24,396 bases of DNA, from the IMG/VR virus record IMGVR_UViG_3300025018_002266, positions 1 through 24,396 of that record, one strand, 5' to 3'. How positions within the stretch are numbered: position 1 is the first letter of the stretch; each line of letters starts with the position of its first letter. The notes under the pieces were generated by a model that saw only the letters and a program-made list of their open reading frames with translations, ran no database searches and had not been told where the DNA came from. The position numbers and the translations under genes were made by a program. The DNA comes from a virus (Duplodnaviria; Caudoviricetes). This document shows positions 1,652-22,952 of this stretch, piece by piece.

Positions 1652-1657
1652 CTTGAT

Positions 1658-1816: not shown

Positions 1817-2398
1817 CTAGAGATCCTTCTTCCAATCCGTCCGGCGACGGCGGGCAAGCTCGCTCTTGCCCTGGTTGGCCTTGGCGTCCCGCTCCGGGCT
1901 GCTGACGGCCCGTGTGGCCGTGTGTCCCGCGAGCACAAGCTGGGCCAGGTCACGGAGCATGTAGCCCCGTGACGACCAAGCCGTCCGCAGGGCGTCCCAC
2001 GTGGCGGACTCCCTGTAGGCGTCCTGGAGCGCCTCAAACGCGGTGATCCTCCGGGGGTGGCAAAGGATCTCATTGGCGAGGGCCTTCTCGGTCACACGCT
2101 CACCCGCCTCGGCCTTCTCCATCGCAATGGCCCTGTAGAGTTCGGCCTCCTCCCGAGCAAACACATCCTTTGCCGCGGTGGCTCGGGAGGATGCACGGGC
2201 AGCCTGCTCGGCGACCTCGAAGTAGCGCTCGGAGTGCTCGATGATCTCACGGTCAATGTTGCCTGGATCGATCCGCAGCTTCGACTCGAAGAACGCGATG
2301 GATACCTCGTGGCGTGGATTGAACTTCACGCCCAAGGGATTGTCGTCGTCACCGTCATCGAGCACAGGACGGGGCTTCTTTTTGATCTTCTTCGTCAT
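1817..2398 (-). CDS. UvsY-like recombination mediator
   Basis: All-helical protein with L.ID...ID.E start, ERVTEKAL and ..SRGYMLR.L pattern resembling UvsY; lies next to the SSB and RecA-like genes. Confidence 0.6.
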   Translation of the reverse strand: MTKKIKKKPRPVLDDGDDDNPLGVKFNPRHEVSIAFFESKLRIDPGNIDREIIEHSERYFEVAEQAARASSRATAAKDVFAREEAELYRAIAMEKAEAGERVTEKALANEILCHPRRITAFEALQDAYRESATWDALRTAWSSRGYMLRDLAQLVLAGHTATRAVSSPERDAKANQGKSELARRRRTDWKKDL

Positions 2399-2404
2399 CG
2401 TATG

Positions 2405-3340: not shown

Positions 3341-3364
3341 TGCACACACTCCATACGGATCGCT

Positions 3365-4333: not shown

Positions 4334-4351
4334 CCTTCCACCTCCCTTCCC

Positions 4352-5926
4352 TTACTCAATGGACACATCCGCCACAAGCGGCCCAATGTCCTTGACGATT
4401 CGTTTCCGGGCCATCTCGGCGTACTCAGGATTCAGCTCCACAATGATCGCATTGCGAAGCAGTCGATTCGCCACCATTGCGGTCGTTCCCGCGCCGCCGA
4501 AGGGATCAAGCACCATACATGGATGAAGATCAGTCACACGTGCATACGCATCTAGTAGTCGATCCTGCGCACGAAGCACCTCACGACAATCCTTCCGCCA
4601 CTGCCGCATGGCATCTCGATCCTTTCGATCCTTTGGCTTAGGTGGGGCACTGTGCCATGTACCCAGCTCTACGTAGCAAGCGCAGGACGGACGCCAGCCC
4701 ACGGTTCGCGGGCCAGGGAAGGGAGAATCGTGATCCGCACCTGATGCTCTTGCCACTTTGACATTGGTGACCAAGCGATGCTGCATTGATGTTGAATCAG
4801 TACGGGCTACGTTCTTGCCACCGACGCGGCGCTTGGCCTCATGCGCGGCATTCATTCGATTCTGCGAGAACTGTGCGTCTGTTCCCGCCGTCTTGCCCCC
4901 GCTGATAGGCTTCCGGGGAGGAGGAGGAGGTTTGCGCAAGACACGCGCCCAGGGCGTCCCACAGGAGGGACAGGCGCCATGTCCTGATGTCCCGGCCAGG
5001 ATGCACCGCTTCGGGAGATGCGTCGGAAAGGTGGCGAAGTGCGAATCAGGAAAGGGGGTGGCTGTCATTCGCCACACATCCCGAGCATTCCTTGTTGCAG
5101 TGGGCTCCCAGGGCTCAGGGGAACCTACACCAACTGTTCTGCGCGCAGGGCGCTCGTAGCCCTGCCCACTGGAATGGGTACTCACAGCGCGCTCGGCAAT
5201 AGCAGTGCGATCATAAAAGTACCGCGCGGACTTGGTAAGAAGAAAGATCAGCTCATAGCTATGTGTTGGCCGATCGGTCACCGATTCAGGCATGGCGTTC
5301 TTGTCCCACACAATGGCGGAACGGAGGTACCAACCATCCGCACGCAAGGCGAACGCCACCATCCAAGGGATGCCGACGAGATCCTTCGATTTGAGTCCAG
5401 AAACACCACTACAACCCAGCCCCTCAGCCGTGAACGTCCGATCCGCTCGCTGGCCTGACGTCCCCTGCTTTCCCCCCGTTGAACCACAGTGGCTATCACC
5501 TAGATTCAGCCAGCAAACACCATCGTCGCGCAGCACACGGCGCACCTCGCGGAAGACACCAACAAGATTCGCAACGTACTGGTCGGGCGTCTTTTCCAAC
5601 CCGATCTGCGCATCCACCCTCAGCGCGCCGCACACGCCGCATTTAGATCGAAAGAGCCGCTCTTTCGATCTAAATGCGGCGTTGCTCTTCTTGAGCTTCT
5701 TCCCCGTACCGTCGGCCAACATGCCCAACGTTGATGTGCGTGCAACCTGCTCGGCGGTCACCTCGACGTGCTTGCACGTGGGATCCCCACCCTCCCAGGA
5801 CGCAGTACCGTAGTCACGAAGGTTGAAATACGGAGGGCTGGTCACACAGCACTGCACAGAACCATCGGGGATCTCGGCCAGGCGCTTGCGCACGTCACCA
5901 ACCAGGATTCGTGTCTTGGGCTTCAT
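4352..5926 (-). CDS. N4-cytosine/N6-adenine DNA methyltransferase (beta class) with large insertions
   Basis: TSPPY near the N-terminus, HFATFP, DPFGGAGTT near the C-terminus, and Cys-containing inserts (CPSCG...CAC). Confidence 0.9.
   Translation of the reverse strand: MKPKTRILVGDVRKRLAEIPDGSVQCCVTSPPYFNLRDYGTASWEGGDPTCKHVEVTAEQVARTSTLGMLADGTGKKLKKSNAAFRSKERLFRSKCGVCGALRVDAQIGLEKTPDQYVANLVGVFREVRRVLRDDGVCWLNLGDSHCGSTGGKQGTSGQRADRTFTAEGLGCSGVSGLKSKDLVGIPWMVAFALRADGWYLRSAIVWDKNAMPESVTDRPTHSYELIFLLTKSARYFYDRTAIAERAVSTHSSGQGYERPARRTVGVGSPEPWEPTATRNARDVWRMTATPFPDSHFATFPTHLPKRCILAGTSGHGACPSCGTPWARVLRKPPPPPRKPISGGKTAGTDAQFSQNRMNAAHEAKRRVGGKNVARTDSTSMQHRLVTNVKVARASGADHDSPFPGPRTVGWRPSCACYVELGTWHSAPPKPKDRKDRDAMRQWRKDCREVLRAQDRLLDAYARVTDLHPCMVLDPFGGAGTTAMVANRLLRNAIIVELNPEYAEMARKRIVKDIGPLVADVSIE
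5634..5682. repeat. Perfect 24-bp inverted repeat with a 1-nt centre, inside the methyltransferase CDS
   Basis: acgccgcatttagatcgaaagagc-c-gctctttcgatctaaatgcggcgt read directly from the sequence. Confidence 0.95.
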
Positions 5927-8580
5927 TTAAGCTGTACGTAACCTCCATTTGAGCCGGATTCAAACGTCCCGACATCCACCAGATCCGCCCAGTTGCGCCC
6001 TACCTGAACCTCGACGGTCAGGGGCACCGTCAGCCACGCAAACGTCGGATGTGGGGGGTGGAGCATCGCTGTAACAACACGCTCCATCGTCGCGTCAAAC
6101 GCGGCCTTCTCCGGCTCAAACGTCAGATCGTCATGGATCTGCAAACGAGGCTGCAGGTTGTCATTCCCCGTTTCATACGCCTCCCGAGCCATTCGATCCA
6201 GGGCGTCATTGGTGATCTCTGCCGCGCCGGATTGGATCGGGGTGTTGACAATCGCGGACATCGACAGCGGTGCGTACCGTCGTCGGCCTAGGGGATTGAC
6301 GACGTAGCCGTGCTCCTTGTAAAAGGCAACCGTCCGAAGCTGCCACTCCTTGACCGCACTAAACTCCTTCCAGAATCGCTTGAAGATTCGGGATGTCACT
6401 CCCTGCGGCATCTGAAGGTAGCGCGCAATCGTCCGCTCCCCGGCCAGATAGAACGCCGGGAACACGAAGAGGTTTTTGATTACACCACGAAGGGCTTTGA
6501 GATTGCCGTCGTGCCTCCGCAGGATTTCAGGGTACTCCGCGGCGATTCGCTTGCTCCACTCCAGATGCACATCGAAGTGCTCATGAAGCGATTGAATCAA
6601 CGTCGGGTCGCGTGACACCTCCGCAATGACCCGGTACTCAATCTGGCCGTAGTCGGTCGCCATGAACACACGTCCACGGCGTGCGTGAACCACCCCACGA
6701 ATCTCACGGTGATCCCGCTTGGGGTATTGCTGGAGATTGGGGTCCGACGCAGCCAGGCGGCTGGTGTCCGTCCCGGTGTCGGAGAAGGAGGCGTGCAGGA
6801 GCCCATCGGGGTGCAGAATCGTCTTCTTCGAGCCAGGCAGGAGGGTGTCCAGGTACGTGCCCTTCAGCTTGACCAGCCCGCGGTGGTCAAGTATGGCTTT
6901 CGCCAGGTCAACACCAGCCGCCGACATGGCCTTCAGCACAGCCTCATCCGTCGAGTACTTGCTGCCCCGCTTGCCCTCGGGGCGCTCCAGCATGTCGCGA
7001 AAGATCACACAAAGCTGCTGCGGGCTGTTCAGATTCAGACGACCATGTTGTTTGGCGTACTCCCGCACAACGGGCAGACGGTTGACCTGCTCCTCAGCCT
7101 TGGCCACCTTCCCCGCGAAATCGTCGCACAGGGCGCGCGCACGGCGCAGGTCCACGGACACCCCCCGGGCCTGCATTACGGCCAGCCCAGGCAAACGTCG
7201 TGCGTGGAAGCGGTAGAGGTCGTAGAGCCCCTCGGTGCGCAACGTGGAAGACTGCTCCACCTCCAGCAGCGCCGTTGATTCGGCGTCGATGGCGTTGTAC
7301 CGCAGGACCGTGTCAATCGGATACCGGATCAGGTTCTTGACGTCAATCTCGGACAGGGACTTGATCCGCAAACCGAAGTAGAGGAGACACCGGACATCCA
7401 GCTTGAGCATGCCCTTGCCGCCGTCGATCACGTACGCCTGGGCCTGGGTGCAGTCCCATTCAATCTCAAACAGGATTGACTCGTCCCCTCCCAACCACCA
7501 ACGATACCACTCCATCTCAAACCGTGCATTGTGCGCAACGAGGCGCTGGCAGCCCTTCAAGAACCCGCGGATGATCTCCTTCAGTTTCTCCAGGCTGCGG
7601 GGCTTCCACGTGCTCCCAGGATGGTCAACCGCAATGGCCACCGTTCGTTTGCCATCAGAGACCGCAAGGGAAAGGAGCTTGGCGCCCTCGGCATAAGGAC
7701 GGAGCTGATTCGTCTCCACATCGGTTGTAACGCACGTCTGATCGAGGTCCGCCAACGCTGCCCGAATTCGTGCCAGTTCGGCGGATCCCCCTCCAAGAAA
7801 CGATTGATACTCCTGGAGGAAATCGGACTCCTGCAGAACGTGCGGCTCTGGCAAATCGACCAGATCATCCCAAACGCGGCCGAGATCGGTAAACCACAAT
7901 GGGAGCCGGTCCGCATCGGAGCGTGACCCCGGAACCTTCTCACCCCGGCGATGGCGCTCCTCAGCAGCCTCAACGCGCACGACAAAGCCCGGATGAAACA
8001 CAGGATAAACCCAGAAGGCATGGCCATCAATCGCGAATGGAAACCGACGGCCACGCCACCCGTTGATCCCTCCTGTCGCCCCAAACCACGCTGCCGCAAT
8101 GGGACCGAGCGCCAGCACCGCACGAGGCTTGCTTTGTGCGAGGTCAGCCTCGATACGAGGAGCGCAGCACGCCACCTCATTGGGCTGGGGGTTCCGGCCC
8201 TTCGGTGGTCGATCCTGGATGACACTATTCCACCGAATCCGCTTGCGGAGGTTGGTCGGGATCTCCGCACGGAGGCGTTGACCCGCCCGCCCCAGGAGGT
8301 GCCGCACATGATGCCCACCGAACTTCGGGATGTCCTCGTCCGGGGTCTCGTCCTCAGCTTGCCCCGGTGCCTCATCCAGGACATAGAGCAGGGGACGCTC
8401 CGCGCCGGTCGGCGGCATCTTCGGCGTCAGCACATCCGCCGCGGACAGGGGACAGGCACGACACCCAAGCTGCCGCAGCCGCGCGATCGGAAACGTGGAG
8501 CCCTGGGTGCCTGAACGTGCGGATGCTTTGGGGCGGGAGTCAGCCCGTGTCTCGAAAAACCCAAATGGCGATCGAGCCAT
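5923..8580 (-). CDS. Family A DNA polymerase with N-terminal uracil-DNA-glycosylase-like domain and 3'-5' exonuclease (SPO1-like architecture)
   Basis: UDG family 4-like motifs CRAC, EAPG, RPP..R.P...E..CC, LALG and FHPG. Exo motifs DVET, HNARFE and YNAID. Pol motifs DYGQIEYR, R...K....F...Y and QIHDDL. Confidence 0.93.
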   Translation of the reverse strand: MARSPFGFFETRADSRPKASARSGTQGSTFPIARLRQLGCRACPLSAADVLTPKMPPTGAERPLLYVLDEAPGQAEDETPDEDIPKFGGHHVRHLLGRAGQRLRAEIPTNLRKRIRWNSVIQDRPPKGRNPQPNEVACCAPRIEADLAQSKPRAVLALGPIAAAWFGATGGINGWRGRRFPFAIDGHAFWVYPVFHPGFVVRVEAAEERHRRGEKVPGSRSDADRLPLWFTDLGRVWDDLVDLPEPHVLQESDFLQEYQSFLGGGSAELARIRAALADLDQTCVTTDVETNQLRPYAEGAKLLSLAVSDGKRTVAIAVDHPGSTWKPRSLEKLKEIIRGFLKGCQRLVAHNARFEMEWYRWWLGGDESILFEIEWDCTQAQAYVIDGGKGMLKLDVRCLLYFGLRIKSLSEIDVKNLIRYPIDTVLRYNAIDAESTALLEVEQSSTLRTEGLYDLYRFHARRLPGLAVMQARGVSVDLRRARALCDDFAGKVAKAEEQVNRLPVVREYAKQHGRLNLNSPQQLCVIFRDMLERPEGKRGSKYSTDEAVLKAMSAAGVDLAKAILDHRGLVKLKGTYLDTLLPGSKKTILHPDGLLHASFSDTGTDTSRLAASDPNLQQYPKRDHREIRGVVHARRGRVFMATDYGQIEYRVIAEVSRDPTLIQSLHEHFDVHLEWSKRIAAEYPEILRRHDGNLKALRGVIKNLFVFPAFYLAGERTIARYLQMPQGVTSRIFKRFWKEFSAVKEWQLRTVAFYKEHGYVVNPLGRRRYAPLSMSAIVNTPIQSGAAEITNDALDRMAREAYETGNDNLQPRLQIHDDLTFEPEKAAFDATMERVVTAMLHPPHPTFAWLTVPLTVEVQVGRNWADLVDVGTFESGSNGGYVQLK

Positions 8581-8592
8581 TGGATGGATCGA

Positions 8593-9645
8593 CTAACTAC
8601 CGGCCGCGACGAGGAAGCAGAAGGAGCCGTCCGCATCGAAGAAACAGAACTTGGGGCTCGCATGGAGAACGAAGCGGTCCACACGACCGATGCACTGAGC
8701 GGCCACAGCGGGGGGGATCTTCACGTTCATGTCGGCGTGCTTGCCGATCTTGAAACTGTCCCGCGCGTGCCCCAGGGGCGTTGTGACCTCCACGACCATC
8801 TTGCCCCCGGAGATCCGACAGTCGGCGGCAACGTCCCGCATGTTCCCGATCAGCACGCTGGTCCGCTTCAGCGCTCCGAACCAAGTCTTGGGCAGGGGCA
8901 CCGCGGCCTTGAAGTTCTCATCGGCGTCCGAGAAAAGCCCCTGAAAGAGCCCCAGGTTCTTCATCGTGGGCACGGCGCTGAAGAGTGTTGTGCCCTCGCC
9001 GATCATGGCGGCGTACCACTCATCGGAGAGGTAGATCGACGTCGTTCCGCCCTTCTTCATTCCGGCCAGGAATAGCTCGACGAACCGTCCGGGCAGGAGG
9101 GGATCCTTGCCGCGCAGTGCAATGGGGGTCTTCATCTTGACCACCGCGCGACTTGCAGCGGCGTCGTCGCAGGAGTAGAGGACTACCTTCCCCTTGGCGA
9201 TCTCCACCTGCACACCATTCCGCCAGGGTTGGGGGCACCCCGTAGCCATTGAGATGGTCACGTGCTGCAGCGCTGCCAGAAGCTGTGGCGTAACCTCCAA
9301 CCGAGGGCAGTCCCCCAGCGACGGTGGCGCAAAGATGAAGTCCTCCTCGGGCAGGACGGGAAACTCGGTAGAGGCCCTGCCGCACTTGACCTTCATGCTC
9401 GACTCGGTCACGTCCAGGGTGACCACCTTCGCCCCAGCGGCGCTCAACCAGTCCTGCATGGGCTGCCCCCGCACACCGCCCCGCCAGGGCGTCACCAGCG
9501 GCGTCACCAGCGCAGCGGAATCGTCGAAGGCGAAGACGCGCTCACCGTCGAAGCAAAAGCAGGGGTGAATCGGCACCAGTGATTTGGGGCCCCCCAACGT
9601 CCCACTCACACTCTTCAACGCACTGAGCAGCGCGGTTCTCTCCAT
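8593..9645 (-). CDS. DNA polymerase III beta-clamp-like sliding clamp
   Basis: About 350 aa. N-terminal MERTALLSALKSV..., FPVLPEEDF and W.NGV......LYSCD resemble DnaN. AGGAGG RBS lies 6 nt before ATG 9645. Same gene block as the polymerase and clamp loader. Confidence 0.7.
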   Translation of the reverse strand: MERTALLSALKSVSGTLGGPKSLVPIHPCFCFDGERVFAFDDSAALVTPLVTPWRGGVRGQPMQDWLSAAGAKVVTLDVTESSMKVKCGRASTEFPVLPEEDFIFAPPSLGDCPRLEVTPQLLAALQHVTISMATGCPQPWRNGVQVEIAKGKVVLYSCDDAAASRAVVKMKTPIALRGKDPLLPGRFVELFLAGMKKGGTTSIYLSDEWYAAMIGEGTTLFSAVPTMKNLGLFQGLFSDADENFKAAVPLPKTWFGALKRTSVLIGNMRDVAADCRISGGKMVVEVTTPLGHARDSFKIGKHADMNVKIPPAVAAQCIGRVDRFVLHASPKFCFFDADGSFCFLVAAGS

Positions 9646-9704
9646 GTCCATCCTCCTGGCAACAGTGGCAGTTGTCGTTCGTCGCAAGCACATACGGAGC
9701 AACA

Positions 9705-9732
9705 CCAGGCGTCCCCTCGCGGAAACGCCTGG
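9705..9732 (-). terminator. Intrinsic terminator-like hairpin
   Basis: Minus strand CCAGGCGUUUCC-GCGA-GGGGACGCCUGG: 12-bp stem with two G-U pairs and a GNRA loop, followed by UGUUGCU, just downstream of the stop at 9760. Confidence 0.6.
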
Positions 9733-9759
9733 CATGTGTGAAGTGTCGGGGTGAGCGGA

Positions 9760-10365
9760 TCACCGCGCGATGGTGAAGCCCATCGCGGTTGCCTGCTTGA
9801 TCAGGCCCATTGCCCCCTGGTAGACCCCCCGGAGGGTGTTGGGGTCGAAGGTGTGGCCCTTCGCCTCGGCCAACTCGCCGATCGTCTCGACGGTGGCGAG
9901 CTGGTTCTCCAGGCAGAGGGCCCGGATCACGTAGCTGCGGTTCTGACGCAGCTCCCGCGGCTGCTTCTCCTTGGGGGCCTTCGGCTCCCGGACCTTCTTC
10001 TTCTCACGCTTCGGCTTGGCCGTCTTCGTGGCCTTCGGTGCGGGCTCCGGCTCGGCCGTCTTCGCTGCCTTGGTGGCCTTGGCCTTCTTCGGCTTCGCGG
10101 TCGTGGTCGCCATGTCAGAATCCTCCGTGGGCGTCGCTCCGGCGTCGAGGGGAGTGAGGTTCATCTCACGGCCACCCTTCCGCGCGGCGTTGATCTCGGT
10201 TGCCGTCTCGTTGACCCAGCTCTGGGCCTCGTCGGAGAGTGCGTTCCACTCGTCCTCCGGCAACTTCGTTGCAGCCCTGGCCACCCTGACCAGGAAGTCC
10301 TGCGTGGTCTCACCTGTCTCCTGCGTGACGCCCGTCGCCGCGAGGAGTTCGCTCTTGATGCTCAT
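9760..10365 (-). CDS. Putative DNA-binding protein with a Lys/Ala/Pro-rich (histone H1-like) linker
   Basis: GGAGG RBS before ATG 10365. Helical N-terminal domain, AKPKKAKATKAAK-type linker, and a C-terminal HTH-like segment. Confidence 0.55.
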   Translation of the reverse strand: MSIKSELLAATGVTQETGETTQDFLVRVARAATKLPEDEWNALSDEAQSWVNETATEINAARKGGREMNLTPLDAGATPTEDSDMATTTAKPKKAKATKAAKTAEPEPAPKATKTAKPKREKKKVREPKAPKEKQPRELRQNRSYVIRALCLENQLATVETIGELAEAKGHTFDPNTLRGVYQGAMGLIKQATAMGFTIAR

Positions 10366-10433
10366 CTGTGCCTCCGGTTCGTGTTCCTCCGGCGTTCCTG
10401 CCGGGTTGCTCAATGGACACATACGATCATCGG

Positions 10434-11045
10434 CTACGGATGTATCCGATTTCGTGCCCACTTCCTCATCCTTTTCTGCGCGGAATCGAGGTTTTCCTCC
10501 TCGAGCCCCGCCTGCCGTGCAAGGCACTGCCTGCGCGTCTCCCGGACGCCGTCCTCCGTCCGAGTGCCTGCCAGCTCCCGGCCGATGACCAGCATCGCGT
10601 ACCCACGGAGATCCTCCGGCACCTCCTCGATCAGCTCCCTCAGCTCGATCCGGTCCATCGTCGTCATGGAGTCCGGGACCGAGGCGAAGAAGTCGGTGGT
10701 GTCCGAGTCGAGATCGGCGGTGATGGTCGCCGTGCGGGCCTTCCGGCGCAGGAACTTGTTGGTCAGGTCGATCATGCGGTTGCGGAGCGCCGTCTTGTAC
10801 ATCCAGACGAACGCGGCCCGGTCAGGCTTCCACTTCCGCCCGGCCACCAACTCCGCGTTGTCCTCACGCGTCGCCCACGCGCGGTGCCAGCGGTCGGCGC
10901 ACTTGTTGTACACCAACCACGCCTCCTGTAGGAGGTCGTCCATGTCGTAAACCGCGCGTGTGTGCCAGTGGTTCTTGGCGCAGAAGGCGCGGGTGATCCC
11001 TTCGATCATCCCGTTCCACTCGGGGACGTAGGCTGTCGGTTCCAT
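10434..11045 (-). CDS. Phage sigma-70/ECF-like sigma factor
   Basis: Region 2-like DDLLQEAWLV...AFVWMYKTALRNRMIDL; about 200 aa; AAGGAG RBS. Confidence 0.7.
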   Translation of the reverse strand: MEPTAYVPEWNGMIEGITRAFCAKNHWHTRAVYDMDDLLQEAWLVYNKCADRWHRAWATREDNAELVAGRKWKPDRAAFVWMYKTALRNRMIDLTNKFLRRKARTATITADLDSDTTDFFASVPDSMTTMDRIELRELIEEVPEDLRGYAMLVIGRELAGTRTEDGVRETRRQCLARQAGLEEENLDSAQKRMRKWARNRIHP

Positions 11046-11117
11046 CGTCGGCTCCTTCCCGTAAGGTTGACCAGAAGGATACCAGTGACCGAATCGGATG
11101 CCACCTGAATCCCCACC

Positions 11118-12062
11118 CTAAAGCGAAAAAACTGATCGCACGAGGGCACGTGCCTCCGCGGGGAGCAACTCGCCAGGATCCTTACGGTGGTGGGGCAGCC
11201 GCGCCACCAGGGGGCGTACGGTCGGCAGCGACCGCTGCAGCAGCCTGGCGGCAACGTCAGCGCCTCGATCGAAGAGGATCGCGGTCCGCTCGCAACGGCC
11301 CCCCCGATCGGATAGTCGGGTGAGTTGAGCGTCGGTTACGTCGGTACCCATTGTGCCCACCACGTCTACACCAAGGGTCCGACAGGCATCGGCCAGCGGA
11401 ATGACGTCGAGGGGCCCCTCCACAATGATCAGGAACCGTGCGTCCCGATCCGGGCCGGAGAAGAGGTACTCCTTGATCGTGTGCCCCTGGGGCTCAGCAC
11501 GGTACCGCAGCTCGGCCTTCCCGATCGCACGTCCGGTCCACCCGACCAGGTGATCACCATCGAACACAGGAAGGATAAGACGATCCCGCCACTCGCCGGA
11601 CACGGCACACCTGATGGAATAGTCGCGCACCACGCGATCGACGTTTGGCAGTCCTCTCGCCTTGAGGTAGGCGTGGAAACGTCGGGTGATTCCCGTGCCA
11701 CAGGGAACGCGGAACTCCGGGGGGAACACAATGTCCGCACTGGCCTGCGGCTTTGGCCTGGTGCCAAGGGCATCAATGCGGCGACGAATCTCAGCCATTG
11801 GCGCCGCGCTGTGGGCTCCCTCCTGGTCCTGGAGGTACTCCTCAACCTGACGCACGTTCCAGCCGGTGATTGCGCGCACAACACGAGCAAGGGGGCCCCC
11901 GTGCGACCGCACACGCCAACAGCCCCAACGGGTACCATCGATGCGGATACCGAAGTTATCCCGGCCCTCGTCCTGGCACCAAGGGCATTGAAGATAGACA
12001 TTGTCCCGCTTCGTCGTGTACTCGATCCCCAATGAATCAAGCAGCCGAACGGGATCAAACAT
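11118..12062 (-). CDS. DNA primase (zinc finger plus TOPRIM)
   Basis: CPWC...CW...H zinc-binding domain, RLILPV, GWTGR, IVEGPLD, FD...D and KDPGE. Confidence 0.88.
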   Translation of the reverse strand: MFDPVRLLDSLGIEYTTKRDNVYLQCPWCQDEGRDNFGIRIDGTRWGCWRVRSHGGPLARVVRAITGWNVRQVEEYLQDQEGAHSAAPMAEIRRRIDALGTRPKPQASADIVFPPEFRVPCGTGITRRFHAYLKARGLPNVDRVVRDYSIRCAVSGEWRDRLILPVFDGDHLVGWTGRAIGKAELRYRAEPQGHTIKEYLFSGPDRDARFLIIVEGPLDVIPLADACRTLGVDVVGTMGTDVTDAQLTRLSDRGGRCERTAILFDRGADVAARLLQRSLPTVRPLVARLPHHRKDPGELLPAEARALVRSVFSL

Positions 12063-14628
12063 CCTGCTTTCCCTTGATCACCGCGTCGAAGAGGTCACGG
12101 CCGTTCATCAAGGCGTCCAGCAGCTTCTCGTCCACCGTTCCACGGATGACAAGGTCGTAGATGAATACGTGAAACTCCTGACCATGCCTCCACAGGCGCT
12201 TCTCCATCTGGCGGCGCTTGATGGGGCTCGGCGGTGACTCGAAGAAGATCGCGTAGTTGCCTGCCTGCAGATTCAACCCGTAAGCAGCGGCATCGCTGGC
12301 CACCAGAATGTGGAGCCGCCCATCGATGAAGTCCGCAACCGCCTTGTTCTTCGCCCTGTTCGATTGCCCCCCGTAGACCCGTCCAACGCGGTACTTCTCC
12401 TTGCGCAGGGCATCGGCCAGGAGTTGGCCGGTGAACTTGTAGAAACAGAAGACCATCACCTGGCGCCCGAGGGGAATCGACGAAAGCAGCTCCAGCAGGA
12501 GATCGAGCTTTGGATTGGACGGGAAGATCAGGGGCTGCTCGGTGCCCTCGTCATCCTTGGGCAGGGCGTACCCCGAGGACAAGCGCCGCAACCGATTCCA
12601 CGAGTTCTCGGTGTCCCGGAAATCCCCCTTGGCAGCACGAAGCTCGTCCATCGCCTGCTCGTAGAAGGCAGCGGTCGATGCGGGGAGGCTGGCACGACGA
12701 ATCAAGAGGTCGCCACCGGACACAAGGCCCCCGGTGATTGGTGGAAGGTCCACCATCTCCTCGGACGTGTACTTGATAGTCCGGTGCGCCAACAGACGAT
12801 TGAGGTTAGGGGTGAGCGCCTTCTTGAAGTGGTACTCGAACCCACCCCAGTAATTCCGTACCGTCGAGAAGAACGCCGCACGGAAGAGCCCCAACGTAGG
12901 CCCCAAGGACTCACCCTGATCGATCAGGTAGAGCTGACTCCAGAGATCATGAGGCTCGTCGCCAAACGGGGTTCCCGTCAGCTCATAGACATGCGGACGG
13001 CCGATCTCCACCTGCTTCCGCAAGCACTTGAACGTCAGTGATTGATGGTTTTTGATCGCGTGCGCCTCGTCCAGGACCAGGCACCCGAAGCGCTGGGCAG
13101 CCTCCTCCAACCGTTCGGCGCTGGGCACCATCTTGCCCTTGATCCGATCGCAGACCATCGAGAGGTAGCCCGCGTAAGTGATCACCACCATCTCCGCGTC
13201 CGACTCCCAGAAGATGGAGCGGCGTTCAGCGGGGGAACCATCCACACCAATGGCAGCCAGATCGGGGCGGTGCTTGGGCGCCTCGCGTTCGGCCCACTCA
13301 GGCACCTGCGTACCGTAGGGCACCAGCACCAGCGCTCGATTGAATGACCCCCGATCAATGTGCCATCGAACCAGGTTCAAACTGATGGATGTGTTATGTG
13401 TGAGAACGAAGCCACGTGTAACAAACAGTCCATCCGGAGCATCGACACAGATGCACGTACAGAAAGAGACCCCAGCAGGGCTGATAGTGGAGATAGCATG
13501 TGTTGGGTAATACTTCCGTTTTCTCCCAGAAAGCACAGCCAACTTGGTCTTGTTTGCGAGAAATGGAGAAATGCCCTGCGGAAGGTTGATCGACATCCTG
13601 TAATAAGGCCGAGCACACTTCCACCCAGGAAGCTTTACATACTTCACCTTTTGACGTCGGGCCACACCACCAAGCGACTGAACAAGAAACTCAACATCTT
13701 TATAAAGCTGCTCCGATGCAGTGAGCCACCCCACCCCACGTGAAATATCACCATCTGTATCCAAAATGCCCTGCAAAATCAACACACGATTCTTGGGACT
13801 AGCATAAAGATACTTCTTGGGGATGAACTTGTCACGGGAATGAACTCCATTCAACCCCAGAGATCTAATCTCCTTAGAAACACCCAAAATGCTCGATGAA
13901 ATCCCATGAGAAGCGCCCCACACCACACCCCGCCGAGATAACTCCTCACGAACGGCGGCCTTCCTCGCACCAAGTGTAACCACCGGGGTGGCGGATGAGC
14001 TGACACACCCATCACCAAGAATAACACCCAAAACGTAAGGATCAATACACAACACATCAGGCTGATCGTTGAATACCACGGGAGCAACCATTGGCAGGTG
14101 GTGCATCCGGTTCCCATTTGAATCAACAAGCTTTTCACGAATTACATCTAAAGATCGAACACGAAAAGGCTTCCCCCGCTTTTTATCAATTGGGGACCGC
14201 GTAGCCCACAAGTGATCATCGGTACTTCTCACCTCAATTCCATCGGAAAGCCTGATTCGAAAAACAGGACGAACGCCTTGAGGAAAAACACCAGTCACAC
14301 GAACGGCTCGTCCAGAAGAGCCAATCACGTAGTCACCAACACGGAGAGATCCCATCTCCACCAAGCCCGTCGGAGTCCACACCAATTCATCATCAGGTAG
14401 CGCTTTCCCGGCTCCCATATCCAACCAGAATGCATAGCCTGGGTACTTGGCACCGAGGAGCAGGCAGATCTTCTGGTGTGTGCGTGGTGGCAGTGGTGAC
14501 GGACGCAGTGGTGGATCCAGCCGTGCCAGCTTGGCGTCGAGCTTCTTGTCGGAGTACCGCTTCGCCTTGCGCGAATCGGCCAGATCTCTCCGATTGAGGA
14601 ACTCCCGCACCGCCGTCCGGCTGATCAC
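12055..14628 (-). CDS. SNF2-family (SF2) helicase interrupted by an intein
   Basis: DMGAGK|T Walker A split by the intein, LVLDEAH, LTGTP, YGLNLQ, and RLWRHGQ motif VI. Confidence 0.92.
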   Translation of the reverse strand: MISRTAVREFLNRRDLADSRKAKRYSDKKLDAKLARLDPPLRPSPLPPRTHQKICLLLGAKYPGYAFWLDMGAGKALPDDELVWTPTGLVEMGSLRVGDYVIGSSGRAVRVTGVFPQGVRPVFRIRLSDGIEVRSTDDHLWATRSPIDKKRGKPFRVRSLDVIREKLVDSNGNRMHHLPMVAPVVFNDQPDVLCIDPYVLGVILGDGCVSSSATPVVTLGARKAAVREELSRRGVVWGASHGISSSILGVSKEIRSLGLNGVHSRDKFIPKKYLYASPKNRVLILQGILDTDGDISRGVGWLTASEQLYKDVEFLVQSLGGVARRQKVKYVKLPGWKCARPYYRMSINLPQGISPFLANKTKLAVLSGRKRKYYPTHAISTISPAGVSFCTCICVDAPDGLFVTRGFVLTHNTSISLNLVRWHIDRGSFNRALVLVPYGTQVPEWAEREAPKHRPDLAAIGVDGSPAERRSIFWESDAEMVVITYAGYLSMVCDRIKGKMVPSAERLEEAAQRFGCLVLDEAHAIKNHQSLTFKCLRKQVEIGRPHVYELTGTPFGDEPHDLWSQLYLIDQGESLGPTLGLFRAAFFSTVRNYWGGFEYHFKKALTPNLNRLLAHRTIKYTSEEMVDLPPITGGLVSGGDLLIRRASLPASTAAFYEQAMDELRAAKGDFRDTENSWNRLRRLSSGYALPKDDEGTEQPLIFPSNPKLDLLLELLSSIPLGRQVMVFCFYKFTGQLLADALRKEKYRVGRVYGGQSNRAKNKAVADFIDGRLHILVASDAAAYGLNLQAGNYAIFFESPPSPIKRRQMEKRLWRHGQEFHVFIYDLVIRGTVDEKLLDALMNGRDLFDAVIKGKQDV
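13393..14403 (-). mobile_element. Class 3 intein (337 aa) with LAGLIDADG homing endonuclease
   Basis: Begins with Ala (ALPDDELVWTPTG) and ends THN before Thr+1. Block B DHLW, block F CTCICV, LAGLIDADG motifs LGVILGDG and LQGILDTDG. DNA is visibly more AT-rich than the flanks. Confidence 0.92.
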
Positions 14629-16049
14629 ACCTCGTCCTCGGCTGTGGCATCAAGATCGGCATCGCCGCTCATGGCCCGCCAGTAGTCATCGGTCATCAAA
14701 CAGGAGTCGAGAGCGAACTGGCCCACCTCAAACCGCTGGGAAAGCAAGATGGTAAACCGATCGGCATCCTCACGTCCCGCCGCGACAAACAGCCGGGCCA
14801 AGCCCAACTGCTTCTCCTCATCGGTACGGGACAGGGTCAGCACGGTATCGGCCACAGCGATCTTCCCAAAATCCTCGGATGCGTTGTAGACGTCCACCTG
14901 CTTCTGCTTAGTGCCACTGCGGTTGGATTGAGTCACAGTGGCAATGCCGATGTTGCGCTTCTGCGCAAGACCGCGCAACCCGACATACGTTGCCCGTGTG
15001 GACTCCCGCAGGTGGTGGGAGTCCAACTCCATCAAGTCAGCGTAATCCAGGCAGATCAGGTCCGGAATGATCCCATGGGACTCCAGCCCGTCCAGGTACG
15101 CCGTCAACCCCCGCAGGGACAGCTCGCCAGAGGGAAACTCCTTGACGATGAACTTCGGCCGGTTCCGAAGGCGAGATTGAAACTTGCGCAGCTTCGCTTC
15201 CACGCCAGGTGCATCCATTGACGTGTGGCGCCGGACATCCACCATCTCCAGATCCAGAAAGTACCCATCGTCATCCCGTTTGAACTTCGGCCGTTTGATC
15301 GCGGACAGCTCTCGTGTGGACAGTCCGAAGAAGACCTGGAACGCACGCTTCAGCACCAGCGGGCGCTTCAGCTCCAGGGTGATGTAGACCACACACCGCC
15401 GCCCGTGGAGCAATGTGTGCTTCGCGAGATTGAGGAGGAACCATGACTTCCCACCCTTCGCCAATGCGATCAGGAGGTAAAGGCGCCCAGGGCCAGGACC
15501 CAAGTTCCGCGCGTCCAACTCCTTGATCCCGGTGGGCCAGGTGTCGTCCTCGTCCGTCAGGAAGTCAAGTGCGCCCTCATCCGTGATCGCCGTGCCCGGG
15601 TCGAAGACATCGATGCTGGCCTTCAAACACGCTGACAGGGCTGACTCAGCCTCCTCCAGGCCATCCACTGTGTCACGATCCATCGCGGTCGTAGCCAGGT
15701 CCAAACCCATCCGGACACGCTGGTACCGGACGAATGCCTGCGCCGAATCGATGATGTAGTCAACGTGAATGGACGCCGCAGTATCGACCATGCTCTCGAA
15801 GAGCTTCCGGAACACGGGCGCGCGCTTCTCATTCCGTGCGCAGAGGGCATCAATCAAGTCCTTGGTCTGCTCCCCCGGAGGAACACCATACCGATCGATG
15901 TACGCGAAAGCGGCCTCGGCAATCTCCCTGTAGAAAGGATCATAGGCCCTGTGAGGGATCAGGTTCCGGACGAACCTGGCGCCCTTCACACCATCCACAA
16001 AACAGAGAATGCTGATCAGGCTTTCCTGGATCGCTCCCGTGAGTTTCAC
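14625..16049 (-). CDS. DnaB-like (SF4) replicative helicase
   Basis: PTGIKELD, Walker A ALAKGGKS, YITLE, ICLDYADLM, TQSNR and SEDFGKIAVAD. Confidence 0.9.
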   Translation of the reverse strand: MKLTGAIQESLISILCFVDGVKGARFVRNLIPHRAYDPFYREIAEAAFAYIDRYGVPPGEQTKDLIDALCARNEKRAPVFRKLFESMVDTAASIHVDYIIDSAQAFVRYQRVRMGLDLATTAMDRDTVDGLEEAESALSACLKASIDVFDPGTAITDEGALDFLTDEDDTWPTGIKELDARNLGPGPGRLYLLIALAKGGKSWFLLNLAKHTLLHGRRCVVYITLELKRPLVLKRAFQVFFGLSTRELSAIKRPKFKRDDDGYFLDLEMVDVRRHTSMDAPGVEAKLRKFQSRLRNRPKFIVKEFPSGELSLRGLTAYLDGLESHGIIPDLICLDYADLMELDSHHLRESTRATYVGLRGLAQKRNIGIATVTQSNRSGTKQKQVDVYNASEDFGKIAVADTVLTLSRTDEEKQLGLARLFVAAGREDADRFTILLSQRFEVGQFALDSCLMTDDYWRAMSGDADLDATAEDEV

Positions 16050-17751: not shown

Positions 17752-18033
17752 CTACACTCCCTCAACCGTGCGCTGGAACTCGCGGACCCACGCCGGATCG
17801 TCCTCATCAATCACGCAGTAGGCATACTCGCCGTCGGCGGAAATCCGCCCAACCGCACCGCAGTGGTCACATGTGGACTTGGCATCCTCCTGCACGACCA
17901 GATGGTCCGGCAGGGAGCAACCAGGCTCACACTCGGTGTAGTCCTCACCGTCACCACAGTACGCAGGGAAGTCGATCTCGTCGCCGCAGACGTCACAGGA
18001 GAACGACAAGACGGGCTTGCTCTCGGCGCTCAC
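17752..18033 (-). CDS. Acidic zinc-ribbon-like protein
   Basis: CDVCG and CDHCG pairs; GTGA overlap with the ligase stop. Confidence 0.6.
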   Translation of the reverse strand: MSAESKPVLSFSCDVCGDEIDFPAYCGDGEDYTECEPGCSLPDHLVVQEDAKSTCDHCGAVGRISADGEYAYCVIDEDDPAWVREFQRTVEGV

Positions 18034-18698
18034 GCCTTCACACCCTTCGGCTGCCCGTCTCGATCCAGCGTCTTCTTGAACGCAATGCCGCCCGCAACGT
18101 GGAAGACAACGATGCCCTCCGGTGACATGAACCCCGGGGACGCGATCGAGCCCGACGCCCCCAGGGAATCGAGAGCATGTTGCGCCTGCACCGTCGAAAA
18201 CTCACCCTGGTACAGCACCGGAACGACACTCACACACGCCGGAGCCTCAACCGTCGTCTTCGGAGGCGCACGTGGGTCCGGTGATGCAAAGACCCGCGGC
18301 GTTTCACCATGTGAATGCCAGCGCATGGTGTTGAACAGACTCCACCGCTTCTCTCCCTTGGCGAGACCGTAGCCGCGCTGGATGCCGGAGCCCCACCACT
18401 CACCGAAGTGGCGGCCCGGCCCGAGAAGGGTGATCTCTTCAGCATGATCGAGTACCCATGCGGCAAAGCCGAAGTTATCGTCCGCTGGGGTGATCCAGCG
18501 GTTGCGCGAACCCGCGTAGATGGTGAACTCGGTGCCGACGACGGTAGGTTCTGCCCCGCTGACGGCGGCCTGATCGGCAGGCACGATCATCACCTGCGCG
18601 TTCGTGCCGTCGATCTTCTCCGTGATGAGCGCCTCACGCGACAGGCGTGTGATCTTCGGGAATGGCCGGAAGTCCACGCTCATGGTGTCGTCACTCAT
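18030..18698 (-). CDS. RNA ligase-like nucleotidyltransferase (Rnl2-type adenylation domain)
   Basis: Motif I TEKIDGTNA, GSRNR, FGEWWG, motif IV EGIVV, motif V FKK; GGAGG RBS before ATG 18698. Confidence 0.85.
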   Translation of the reverse strand: MSDDTMSVDFRPFPKITRLSREALITEKIDGTNAQVMIVPADQAAVSGAEPTVVGTEFTIYAGSRNRWITPADDNFGFAAWVLDHAEEITLLGPGRHFGEWWGSGIQRGYGLAKGEKRWSLFNTMRWHSHGETPRVFASPDPRAPPKTTVEAPACVSVVPVLYQGEFSTVQAQHALDSLGASGSIASPGFMSPEGIVVFHVAGGIAFKKTLDRDGQPKGVKA

Positions 18699-18930
18699 CG
18701 TCATCCTCCGCGCGAATGTCATGGAACGCCTCAAGGTATCCCTCGCACCAAGCATGGGAATTCATCGGCGTCATCGTGTGTGCTACCCACTCCTCGTCAT
18801 CGTCCGGGTTCGCCTCATCGTGATACTGACCGATCGCATCCGCCTCGTCACGAGCAATGCAAATGAACTCGATGTCGTTCTCACCCGGTGCGGTGACAGC
18901 GAATAGTGCAAACTGATCGGTGTGAGTCAA
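18691..18930 (-). CDS. Small acidic hypothetical protein
   Basis: GGAG RBS, TTG start, and overlap with the ligase start. Confidence 0.55.
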   Translation of the reverse strand: MTHTDQFALFAVTAPGENDIEFICIARDEADAIGQYHDEANPDDDEEWVAHTMTPMNSHAWCEGYLEAFHDIRAEDDDE

Positions 18931-18966
18931 TGGTATCTCCCCGTGAAAGGGTCAGGCGACGGGCAC

Positions 18967-19644
18967 TTATTCCATACGTGGCACACGCTCCTGAATCAGA
19001 TCGGCCAGCACATGCAGGCGATCGTAGAGATCCGGGTCGTCGGCAAGCAGCCCGTTCGTGACCGCATGGATGAGCCGATTCGCATCAGACATATACGACA
19101 CGCCGGAACGCACCAAGCCAGCGGCATCGACCTGCTGTGGGGTGAGTGTCTGTCCGGCAAGGTGATGGATCGGGCGCCGAAGAAGTACGGTGTTCCCCTT
19201 GGAATCAAACGCGGTCTTACGCTCGATCAGTGCTGCCAGACGTGCATTGGTCAGGCCCACCAATCCAGCGATCCGCGAATCGTCCCAGCCCTCCTCACGG
19301 AGGAGCATGGTGGCACGGTGGATGTCGGCGGCACAGAGATCCTTGCTCCCACGTCCCACATTGGTCCGAATCGCGTCAGCCTTGATTTCACCCTCGCTCT
19401 TGTAGGTACGGTACTCGACAGCAACAACTGCATCGGGACCGAACAGGCGAATGAGCGCACGACGCCGGTGAACGCCATCAACAATGCGCTTGGTGGACCG
19501 ATCCACAAGGATTGGCGGAATGGTCGCACCAGCCTCGATGGCGTCCTTGATCTCGGTGACGTGGCCATCGTAGACCGTGTTCCGCGGGTAGATGCTGAAA
19601 TCTTCAATCAGCTTCGATGCCCAAACCTGAACGATTCTGCTCAT
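18967..19644 (-). CDS. ParB/Srx N-terminal-domain protein
   Basis: IPPILVD...IVDGVHRRRA (ParB box II-like GxxRxxA), followed by HTH-like GWDDSRIAGLVGLT; GGAGG RBS. Confidence 0.85.
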   Translation of the reverse strand: MSRIVQVWASKLIEDFSIYPRNTVYDGHVTEIKDAIEAGATIPPILVDRSTKRIVDGVHRRRALIRLFGPDAVVAVEYRTYKSEGEIKADAIRTNVGRGSKDLCAADIHRATMLLREEGWDDSRIAGLVGLTNARLAALIERKTAFDSKGNTVLLRRPIHHLAGQTLTPQQVDAAGLVRSGVSYMSDANRLIHAVTNGLLADDPDLYDRLHVLADLIQERVPRME

Positions 19645-19677
19645 CTTTCAATCCTCCGGTGTAAGAAGTAACATCGA

Positions 19678-20010
19678 GCGAACGCTTCTGGACTTGGGGT
19701 CTCATGCCACTTGGTGCGCTCGTCTCGATTGGATCTCTCTAGGTCGGTGGCTCGCTCTACTTCAATGGGGATCTCGGACGTTCTTGGCACGCTTGCCCTA
19801 CTTGGGGCTCTCATCCTTCGTTGGCACGCTCACGCTGCATGGGTCTCTCGTAGGCATTGGCACGCTACTATCTGTTGGGTCTCTCATAGGCATTGGCACG
19901 CTCGGGGTCGTGGGGTCTCTCCTCAATCGTGGCACGCTTGAACCGGATGGATCTCTCATGCTTCATGGCGTGCTTCATTCGATTGGGTCTCTCCGCGTGC
20001 GTGGCACCAG
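19678..20010 (-). repeat. TIGR-like dual-repeat guide RNA array, about 9 units, 36-nt period
   Basis: Plus-strand TGGCACGCT-like repeat starts at 19712, 19748, 19785, 19822, 19858, 19894, 19930, 19966 and 20002. It alternates with a TGGGTCTCT(C)-like repeat at 19695, 19730, 19766, 19803, 19840, 19876, 19912, 19948 and 19984. Variable segments of about 9 nt separate them. Confidence 0.9.
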
Positions 20011-20035
20011 ACATAGCACACGCAAATCAACTGGT

Positions 20036-21088
20036 TCAGCCCCGGCCATTCCGATCCGCGCCGCCACGGTGGGTGTGCCCGAGCTTGTCCTCCTGATACG
20101 TTCCGATCACCGGCAGCCCCTCGGCTTTCCGCCAGGCGGTCCAGAAATCGGCCAGGAGCATCTTCACGCTCTGGCGCATGGCGTCATTGTGGCGGTGCGC
20201 CGCACCCTCGCCCCAAGGGGCCCAGCTAGGCGTGAACACCGTCCCCGAGGCGTACGGCAGCCCCAGAGCGGCCTTCTGCTCCCAGGTGAGCCGCGCCTTC
20301 TGCATTCGGATCTCGTCCTTCCGGTCACCAGACTCGAGAAACGCCGCCTCCCGGGCTTCGTACTTCGCACGGGCCGCCGCCACCTCCACGGGGTACTTCT
20401 CATTCTCGGTGTTGCCGACGCAGTTCCAGCAGCCGACCTTCTTGCCTGCCTCCTTGGTGACGTAGCCATCCGCCCCCTTCTTGGGCTGCACCGCCTGGCC
20501 ACTCCCACCACAGAGCATGCAGGGCCCCCGCTGATTGCGCCGACGCCGGACGACATCACGATAGATGTCGTGGTACTTGCCATGACAGAGCTTCACGAAG
20601 CTCTGGCCCAGGAGGTACATCCGCGTCCGCAGCCAGGAGTTGTAGCTGTTCCGCTGGCCCTTGGTCCGACGCGGTGATCGGCCCGTCTCCTTATCGAGAC
20701 CCAGCCCTGCGAAAGCCCAGAAGGAAGAAGGGTACCGAGCAAGACGAATGTCGAACTCGGAGAGCATCCCCGCCGCGATCGTCGGGCCCATGCCATCGAC
20801 CGCCATCAACCAGGGCCACATGATGTGTTCGGCACCGATCCGAGCACACTCACGCTTCATCGCATCTTCCAGCCGTTTGGTCTCGGCCAGCAACCGCTTG
20901 TTGGCGGTGATCTCGTGATCGGTCAGGATGACCTTCGGTGCTTTTCCTCCCTTGGGCACACCGCGGTTGCCGTGCCCCTGACGCAGCTTCTGGACGTCGT
21001 AGAAGGTCCGTACCGCGGACCGCAGACGGAAGATGAACGGGTCCATCACCTTCTGTTCCTTCTTCGGGGGTGATTCAATGCTCGACAT
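20036..21088 (-). CDS. tasA: TasA-like Nop-domain RNA-binding protein (IS110 C-terminal-like, no RuvC/HNH) with zinc-finger insertion
   Basis: Coiled coil, then WLMAVDGMGPTIAAGMLSEF..PSSFWAFAGL..YNSWLRT..GKYHDIY..HRHNDAMRQSVKMLLADFW. No DEDD RuvC domain at the N-terminus. Directly followed by the 36-nt dual-repeat array. AGGAG RBS. Confidence 0.8.
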   Translation of the reverse strand: MSSIESPPKKEQKVMDPFIFRLRSAVRTFYDVQKLRQGHGNRGVPKGGKAPKVILTDHEITANKRLLAETKRLEDAMKRECARIGAEHIMWPWLMAVDGMGPTIAAGMLSEFDIRLARYPSSFWAFAGLGLDKETGRSPRRTKGQRNSYNSWLRTRMYLLGQSFVKLCHGKYHDIYRDVVRRRRNQRGPCMLCGGSGQAVQPKKGADGYVTKEAGKKVGCWNCVGNTENEKYPVEVAAARAKYEAREAAFLESGDRKDEIRMQKARLTWEQKAALGLPYASGTVFTPSWAPWGEGAAHRHNDAMRQSVKMLLADFWTAWRKAEGLPVIGTYQEDKLGHTHRGGADRNGRG

Positions 21089-21091
21089 GGG

Positions 21092-21362
21092 GATCTCCTA
21101 CTTTCCCGGTCTGGATCACCAGCAGCGTGCCAATGATCATCAGCGGTACATACGCTCGTCAGGATGGATCCTGCTCTTGATAATCAGCAAGAATTGATCG
21201 GTAGCACCCTGTAGATCAGGCCATCCTTCTGGATCCTGCGGGATCAAATGACAGCATTGATGACCTGTAGCAGGATCCAGTGGCTATTGATGCCGATCTA
21301 GAGGAGCCCGCTGCTGATCAATGCAGGATCTACAGCGGTAGCTGTTGATACCCATGCTGATC
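21092..21362. other. GATC-dense, phased repeat region; candidate replication origin or regulatory region
   Basis: 13 GATC sites in about 270 bp, repeated GCAGGATC and TGCTGATCAA motifs in both orientations, non-coding, located at the strand switch. Confidence 0.5.
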
Positions 21363-21599
21363 AAGCCAATTCATGCAGGATTAGGATGCTTATCAGCAGC
21401 TTTTCTACTTCAAGCATCAACCGTGGTGAGACCCCAACCCAGCGCAATCAAGTAAATCATGAGATAAACTTGATCGTCTGGGTCAGAGTAGCGGCAGGCG
21501 CATCAACACGCGGAGCCGACCCCGAGCCGTCGTTTCACCATTTACTCCCGGGAAGAGCCACTACTCGACGGTCTAGAGTGCATCGAATCGCTCCGATGG

Positions 21600-22568: not shown

Positions 22569-22952
22569 ATGCGCATCGCAATCGTCGGCAGCCGGAAGTG
22601 GTCCTACAAGCTGAATCAGCTTGAGGACGCCATCCAGCACCTGATCGATGCAATTCAGTCTGCAGATCCCGATGCCATCGTTGTCTCGGGGGGAGCCGTA
22701 GGCGCGGACACCGTCGCCGAGCAGACCGCACGCGCCGCGGGCCTGGGCGTCCTGATCTTCCCTGCGCAGTGGGATCGGCACGGCAAGTCCGCTGGGTTCA
22801 TCCGCAACCGCCGGATCGTCGAACACGCTGACCGTGTTGTCGCCTACTGGAATGGGACCAGCCGCGGGGCGAAGAACACGATCGATCTGGCCGTGAAAGC
22901 CAAGAAGCCGGTCATGATCTACTACCCTGACGGACGACGGGAAAGGCGCTAG
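22569..22952 (+). CDS. SLOG-superfamily protein (DprA/YspA-like nucleotide-binding fold)
   Basis: IAIVGSR, VVSGGAVGAD, GKSAGFIRNRRIV and WNGTSRGAKNTI. Confidence 0.85.
   Translation: MRIAIVGSRKWSYKLNQLEDAIQHLIDAIQSADPDAIVVSGGAVGADTVAEQTARAAGLGVLIFPAQWDRHGKSAGFIRNRRIVEHADRVVAYWNGTSRGAKNTIDLAVKAKKPVMIYYPDGRRERR

Follow-up and report, generated by a model that had tools for sequence, protein, structure and literature searches.

A phage contig with a dual-repeat TIGR array flanked by a nuclease-free tasA and a gene for a ParB-like protein

On the minus strand of this contig, two short repeats alternate with spacers of about their own length in the space between two genes. What is this tract, and what could it do for the phage that carries it? 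A sequence-only reading had proposed an array of 9+9+9+9 architecture whose transcript would be bound by a protein dimer. We parsed the tract, analyzed the two neighboring genes and searched for relatives and targets. The window (the whole stretch analyzed, 24,396 nt) derives from a phage, is classed as a virus record and carries a replication module.

The array and its reading as guide RNA

Parsing of the minus strand yielded nine units (19682..20007), each with the order edge repeat AGCGTGCCA, spacer A, loop repeat (G)AGAGACCCA and spacer B. The edge repeat is truncated at both ends of the array, at the 5' side where the array starts (20007-20002) and at the 3' side where it ends (19686-19682). 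The units start at 20010, 19974, 19938, 19902, 19866, 19830, 19793, 19756 and 19720 and measure, in this order, 36, 36, 36, 36, 36, 37, 37, 36 and 34 nt. The nine spacer pairs listed by the sequence-only reading were all found on the minus strand in the order given, and the two 37-nt units it had pointed out were recovered. The dual-repeat array is thus real, while the strict 9+9+9+9 layout needs amendment: the last unit has 34 nt, its spacer B is likely 9 nt long, and the loop repeat is better described with 10 nt.

A fit to AG-N4-CCA had been ascribed to both repeats. It holds exactly for 15 of the 17 full repeats (8/8 of the AGCGTGCCA type, 7/9 of the AGAGACCCA type), and two repeats of the AGAGACCCA type deviate. 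The 15 motifs form a single chain with steps of 18, 19, 36 or 37 nt. When the whole window (24,396 nt) was simulated by a first-order Markov model, the longest chain was 1 in 282 and 2 in 18 of the 300 samples, versus the 15 observed. Furthermore, more than seven AG-N4-CCA motifs occurred in none of 5000 simulated samples of the 333-nt tract.

Leaving aside the truncated first edge repeat and the shortened last loop repeat, positions 2 and 7 can pair in 8/8 edge and 8/8 loop repeats, whereas the 3:6 pair is present in 7/8 edge repeats versus 2/8 loop repeats. Since the 3:6 pair is found mainly in AGCGTGCCA, the published edge-repeat rule identifies AGCGTGCCA as the edge repeat and AGAGACCCA as the loop repeat. 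In the last unit, which is 2 nt short, the 3:6 pair is broken. Comparison by hand with a second allele described below suggests that the loop repeat of this unit lost the 2 nt and that its spacer B comprises 9 nt (19695-19687) rather than 8 nt.

Spacer A ends with G in all nine units, as noticed before, while the first base of spacer B is A or T in 9/9 and its last base a purine in 8/9. The invariant G probably belongs to the loop repeat, which the sequence-only reading had also considered. In the closest TasA locus found (L001), G precedes 31/37 loop-like and 26/35 edge repeats, and in the more distant L004 it precedes 10/29 and 6/29, respectively, all four counts being based on loose patterns. 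On the basis of these counts, of the 16 variable bases per unit in SpTIGR and of the 10-nt repeats of published tasParB loci, we count the G with the loop repeat. The layout is therefore better given as a 10-nt loop repeat and a variable spacer A of 8 nt.

These properties are those of the dual-repeat TIGR arrays described in PMC12045711, in which edge and loop repeats of 8-12 nt alternate with spacers of approximately 9 nt in mostly 5-15 units, the edge repeats are truncated at both ends and a predicted terminator typically follows. According to the same source, box C and box D are common to both repeats, an extra pair occurs in the edge repeat only, and the transcripts are processed to 36-nt guides (tigRNAs), which in SpTIGR have 16 variable bases per unit. 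The window array has nine units of 34-37 nt, truncated edges, shared box C/D and the extra edge pair. Moreover, the pseudo-symmetric RNA bound by a protein dimer as in box C/D RNPs, which had been proposed from the letters of the tract, is the published TIGR-Tas architecture (PMC12045711), and the neighboring gene encodes a Tas protein. Both the array and its first interpretation are supported by these data.

A CRISPR array was rejected as an explanation, since it needs one repeat of 25-36 nt with spacers of similar size and the tract has two kinds of repeat of 9-10 nt. Searches of the window with Rfam and ARAGORN gave no match. Elsewhere in the window, a second tract with a 36-nt period (9884-10178) was rejected as an array; it lies inside a Lys/Ala/Pro-rich coding region and reads as a coding repeat. 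A lone copy of the edge repeat is present on the plus strand at 21124-21132.

Could the tract instead encode part of a 12-aa repeat protein? This was the competing explanation named by the sequence-only reading, and reading frames, three-base periodicity and substitution pattern all speak against it. All three minus-strand frames contain stops across the array. One plus-strand frame (19694-20677) stays open through it, as expected, because such a frame was open in 42% of 5000 arrays with fixed repeats and randomized spacers. The differences among the five 36-nt units with full edge repeats are distributed 15/17/15 over the codon positions and are thus not 3-periodic. In sequencing run X1, which may be the source of the window, the four differences that fall inside the plus-strand frame are all nonsynonymous there and silent in tasA. 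In line with this, the product of the plus frame had no match in NCBIfam. We consider a translated repeat protein an extremely remote explanation of the array.

The TasA protein and its relatives

The gene upstream of the array (20036..21088, minus strand) encodes a Nop-domain Tas protein of 350 aa without an N-terminal nuclease domain, as shown by profile, PDB and fold comparisons and by its presence in a published table. It matched the NCBIfam TIGR-Tas profile NF052498 with 140.9 bits (cut-off, 100), position 1 of the profile falling on residue 22. In a phmmer search of the PDB, TasH (21kl; E = 9.9e-15) and TasR (9mty; E = 2.9e-12) were the sole matches at E up to 1. A structure model built from a 129-row alignment, which replaced an earlier one from a 5-row alignment (pLDDT 53), reached a pLDDT of 88 and has helices from residue 17 on. 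The ten best Foldseek matches of this model were all TasH or TasR chains (E = 1e-10 to 7e-8). Pfam detected no nuclease family in the protein. With the profile match starting at residue 22 and helix 1 at residue 17, the protein has no room for an HNH or RuvC domain ahead of them and is thus a TasA. Indeed, the identical protein with the same coordinates is listed in Table S1 of PMC12045711 (sheet ProteinInfo, row 5933), and the protein in row 5946 of that table differs from it by one residue. The assignment to the TIGR-Tas family is virtually certain.

The same data bear on the idea that the locus is an IS110-type insertion element with a bridge RNA. Pfam Transposase_20 (E = 3.9e-5) and the PHROG label "transposase" would fit such an element, but the IS110 profile NF033542 was matched with 21 bits only, against a cut-off of 140, and the IS110-family recombinases IS621/ISCro4 ranked far below the Tas chains in the fold search. 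Moreover, with Nop helices starting at residue 17 there is no space for the N-terminal DEDD domain, and an IS110 element was rejected on the absence of this catalytic domain. This origin of the locus can for practical purposes be set aside. The likeness that exists is to a wider group: like the window, IS110 bridge-RNA recombinases and box C/D snoRNPs have an RNA-binding domain of the Nop type and tandem guides flanked by box C/D (PMC12045711). The window differs from them in the missing DEDD domain and in its many clustered guides versus one bridge RNA, and no fibrillarin or L7Ae-like gene was detected among the window proteins scanned.

Near the C terminus, a Tyr/His loop (Y331, H338 and H340; 20069..20098, minus strand) is the predicted guide-processing site. 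Y331 and H338 align with positions 289 and 296 of TasH, as counted by hand, and Y289/H296 is the catalytic guide-processing pair of TasH (PMC13421893). A search for the TasA family returned 2606 representatives at E up to 0.001, the best 150 of which were listed. Of 151 aligned proteins, 149 retain Y331, 134 the residue of the H340 column and 48 that of the H338 column; either H338 or H340 may be the partner of Y331 in this putative site.

Inserted into the Nop domain is a second element with two CxxC motifs (residues 190-224; 20417..20521, minus strand), a likely zinc-binding element. The insertion has 122 residues versus a median of 53 in the 151 aligned proteins. At least two CxxC motifs are present in the same insertion in 87/151 of them, and the motifs are therefore a feature of a clade rather than a novelty of the window TasA. 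The word "zinc" does not appear in the main text of PMC12045711, PMC13421893 or bioRxiv 10.64898/2026.09.09.750476.

Of the characterized systems, SpTIGR-TasH of Salicola phage CGphi29 (21kl, 9w04; PMC13421893) is the best match to the window TasA in both sequence and fold. It shares the AGCG-GCCA frame of the edge repeat, variable spacers of 8 nt and the Tyr/His loop (PMC12045711; PMC13421893; 10.64898/2026.08.11.744272). SpTasH differs by its N-terminal HNH domain and DNA cutting, whereas the window TasA has the 122-residue insertion with two CxxC motifs and the ParB-like neighbor. TaTIGR-TasR (9mty) resembles the window in its 36-nt unit, the box C "CCA", the 2:7 pair in both repeats and the extra pair in the edge repeat only. 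It deviates in box D (UG; AG in the window) and in the active RuvC domain of TasR.

Three distinct viral relatives of TasA were found (L001, L003 and L004). All of them pass NF052498 and carry arrays of the same form. In L001, a block of dual-repeat units forms part of the tasA reading frame, where it separates the two CxxC motifs (1449-1763), and further arrays are located at 557-873 and about 1985-2751. Intragenic TIGR arrays are described in bioRxiv 10.64898/2026.09.09.750476. A collection of phages contained 85 records with weak TasA-like matches, 80 of them mycobacteriophages; identity was about 26% among the matches listed, and these proteins are annotated as hypothetical protein or transposase.

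The ParB-like neighbor and a proposed silencing mechanism

Downstream of the array, after 37 nt, follows a gene for a ParB-like protein of the tasParB type (225 aa; 18967..19644, minus strand). A GGAGG at 19653..19657 (minus strand), 8 nt before the ATG, is its likely ribosome-binding site. The protein matched PHROG 1033 (ParB-like; E = 4.3e-11), but no ParB family in Pfam or NCBIfam, and no solved structure was matched at E 0.01. A DG-HR motif is invariant in 11/11 aligned relatives.

Operons of tasA with a ParB-like gene are known. PMC12045711 (section 44) describes them as conserved, with arrays sometimes between the genes and with 10-nt repeats, and models a TasA-TasParB assembly. Like the window locus, these tasA-tasParB operons (Faure et al. 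2025, PMC12045711) combine a nuclease-free TasA, an array between the genes, the same orientation and 10-nt repeats. Compared by description, the window locus shows no difference of kind from them. Since the identical protein is in the discovery table and the tasA-parB pairing is published, the locus is an already known system, a dual-repeat TIGR-TasA with a tasParB-type gene.

A scan of viral contigs with the ParB-like gene revealed six loci (L006-L011) with 31-40% identity over nearly the full length. In 6/6 of them, at around 2400-5200, the gene adjoins a PHROG 4652 gene, and the profile of the six PHROG 4652 proteins matched the SUSP1 Vipr protein (E = 3.8e-15). Several GGY/NN tracts were present at 4/6 loci. 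The TasA profile matched at none of the six, and NF052498 found no match in the five of the six records that were searched whole, four of which are incomplete. With relatives beside Vipr-like genes and the window gene beside tasA, the ParB-like family accompanies both TIGR-TasA and VIPR. In genome contigs, partial matches to the ParB-like protein were detected at 18 loci, in actinomycetes, and the phage collection contained no relative.

VIPR (bioRxiv 10.64898/2026.04.26.720920) resembles the window system as phage-borne, RNA-guided DNA silencing with one accessory gene, and the ParB-like family stands beside Vipr-like genes. It differs by its RAMP effector and its GGY/NN guide code; no GGY/NN tract was found in the window. 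For SUSP1 VIPR, the accessory gene is reported to enhance protection and is not described as ParB-like in the parts covered here (10.64898/2026.04.26.720920; 10.64898/2026.10.15.759431). "ParB" is not mentioned in the texts of three VIPR preprints or in one supplement file of 10.64898/2026.04.26.720920; the accessory genes are named in the figures.

The analysis shows how the array is built, that its neighbor is a TasA with no space for HNH or RuvC, and that a Tyr/His loop and a ParB-like neighbor are present. From these we propose, with moderate confidence, that guides from the array steer a TasA dimer to bind and not to cut DNA, likely silencing competing mobile elements or host genes. The spacing and common strand of tasA, the array and the ParB-like gene suggest that they would form one transcript: the gaps are 28 nt between tasA and the array and 37 nt between the array and the ParB-like gene. 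In agreement with one transcript, no terminator consensus was found between the three elements. The predicted terminator that is typical after TIGR arrays (PMC12045711) was missing here, which counts against the model, and a promoter scan was uninformative (2 sites versus 1.1 expected). TasA dimers would bind this transcript and cut within the edge repeats by means of the Tyr/His loop, giving about nine 36-nt guides; processing through the Tyr/His loop was shown for SpTasH (PMC13421893). In each guide, the two spacers would pair with opposite DNA strands at neighboring sites, resulting in targets of 16-18 bp, and such pairing of tandem spacers with both strands was shown for TasR (PMC12045711). 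The nuclease-free complex would then stay on the DNA and block transcription. Such repression was reported from E. coli with a TasA of the stem-loop type and with dead TasR (bioRxiv 10.64898/2026.09.09.750476), neither of which is a dual-repeat TasA accompanied by ParB. For the ParB-like protein, an accessory role is probable, in which it would strengthen or spread the block.

The proximity of the ParB-like gene permits another role, in which TasA-guide complexes would act as an RNA-defined parS, a programmable site where the ParB-like protein is loaded for DNA tethering or segregation. The position of the gene directly after the array, the conserved tasA-parB operons and the modeled TasA-TasParB assembly (PMC12045711) are compatible with it. 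However, Pfam revealed no ParA-like gene among the 22 window proteins, and no ParB-like profile match was obtained in the 6 kb examined of L001, the closest TasA locus found. The ParB-like family also occurs beside Vipr-like genes, whose products, reported to be silencers, are unrelated in fold, and a general accessory role therefore suits it better. Loading of ParB for segregation thus appears unlikely.

What would a silencing TasA be directed at? The composite-target search suggested by the sequence-only reading, in both orders and both registers, gave no exact match in the window; the best candidates had 3 mismatches. When targets of 8+8 nt with gaps of 0-3 were searched in the window and the loci of its relatives (215 kb, mostly unrelated DNA), there was again no exact match and none that was credible. 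Nine sites with 1-2 mismatches were obtained in the 215 kb, one of them (2 mismatches) inside the window, and short composite targets are known to give many false matches (bioRxiv 10.64898/2026.09.09.750476).

These results also weigh on a variant in which the same TIGR-TasA machine aims its guides at the phage's own genes. A role in controlling the viral life cycle is considered possible in bioRxiv 10.64898/2026.09.09.750476, and self-targets may lie elsewhere in the genome, the 24 kb examined being probably a fragment of it. Nevertheless, no full-length composite was found exactly in the contig, where at least 3 mismatches remained, and a single 2-mismatch site among nine in 215 kb lies in the window. 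We regard self-regulation as rather improbable. Since the contig (24 kb, probably partial) contains no exact target, the proposed silencing is more likely aimed at competing elements or host genes.

Regarding the remainder of the contig, the replication module (629-16049, minus strand) comprises genes for a gp32-like SSB, a clamp-loader-like AAA+ protein, a sliding-clamp-like protein, primase, DnaB and two DNA methyltransferases. A family A DNA polymerase (5923-8580, minus strand) has an N-terminal uracil-DNA-glycosylase-like domain (PF03167; E = 3.6e-9). At 12055-14628 (minus strand), a SNF2-type helicase is split by a LAGLIDADG-containing insertion whose first residue, behind the P-loop GK, is Ala and whose last two, ahead of Thr, are His-Asn; it resembles a putative Ala-start intein. 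An RNA ligase-like gene (18030-18755, minus strand) follows the ParB-like gene two open reading frames downstream; a gene of the SLOG/YspA family (22569-22952, plus strand) is located in the opposite direction, beyond tasA. The region upstream of tasA (21091-21480) has a lower GC content and over most of its length no open reading frame of 60 aa. Its 390 nt contain 14 GATC sites, compared to a window mean of 4.3 and a maximum of 11 elsewhere, and it is possibly an origin or control region.

Array variation and its meaning for TIGR loci

Two observations concern the variability of the array. Units 4 and 5 (19830..19902, minus strand) are identical at 26 of 27 positions across edge repeat, spacer A and loop repeat and differ in their B spacers. 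Only 0.027 such near-identical spacer pairs are expected by chance among the 72 same-class pairs. Furthermore, assembly of run X1 yielded the window-type array unchanged (0 differences; contig depth, 16.5) together with a second contig of 87 nt and a depth of 9.7. Of this contig, 30 nt match the window (19674..19703, minus strand), corresponding to the last spacer B and the terminal half edge repeat, and the remaining 57 nt, upstream of 19703, are loose and diverge from the window. By hand, 30 letters of the loose part were read as a complete loop repeat, another spacer A (again ending with G), the edge repeat AGCGCGCCA and a B spacer that is absent from the window.

This single short contig from one run thus points to a second array allele in which the last spacer B is kept and spacer A is different. 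Runs X2-X7 contained no contig over the array. A 22-nt stretch from the shared end was found in no viral contig and, among metagenome contigs, in the window's own record only, so the second allele is seen through the 30 letters only. The contig over the ParB-like gene in X1 (depth, 20.3) branches just after the stop codon (18936-18972), and this branch suggests that a second genome in X1 shares the ParB-like gene.

The irregular units could also mean that the TIGR locus is a relic that decays and is no longer active: the last unit lacks 2 nt and has its 3:6 pair broken, and two units have 37 nt. Yet tasA is intact with all near-invariant residues kept, its differences between X1 and the window are synonymous in 5/5 cases, and the second allele has well-formed units. 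In addition, spacer lengths of 8-10 nt do not depart from those in print (PMC12045711; bioRxiv 10.64898/2026.09.09.750476). Taken together, decay of the locus is very unlikely.

The likeness of units 4 and 5 and the second allele hint at exchange at the loop repeat. The terminal A spacers of the two alleles agree at 4/8 free positions and could have drifted apart from each other, which counts against such an exchange. In the relatives, near-identical spacer pairs were rare (1/702 in L001; 1/380 in L004, with both halves alike; 0/272 in L003), and these loci therefore give no general support for half-unit exchange. We nevertheless put forward, as a tentative and somewhat doubtful extension of the silencing model, that two unrelated RNA-guided DNA-binding systems of phages, TIGR-TasA and VIPR, use the ParB-like protein as a common plug-in amplifier of silencing and that the array changes by loop-repeat exchange, re-pairing A and B half-guides to give new targets without acquisition machinery. 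According to PMC12045711 and bioRxiv 10.64898/2026.09.09.750476, the way in which TIGR arrays acquire or alter their spacers is unknown.

The locus is not new as a system: its family, the pairing of tasA with parB and the TasA protein itself have all been published. Its relevance lies in two other points. The ParB-like genes beside Vipr-like genes provide an opening for a swap test of tasParB function. Moreover, with two alleles sharing the last half-unit and units 4 and 5 sharing a spacer A, the locus is suited for studying how TIGR spacers change.
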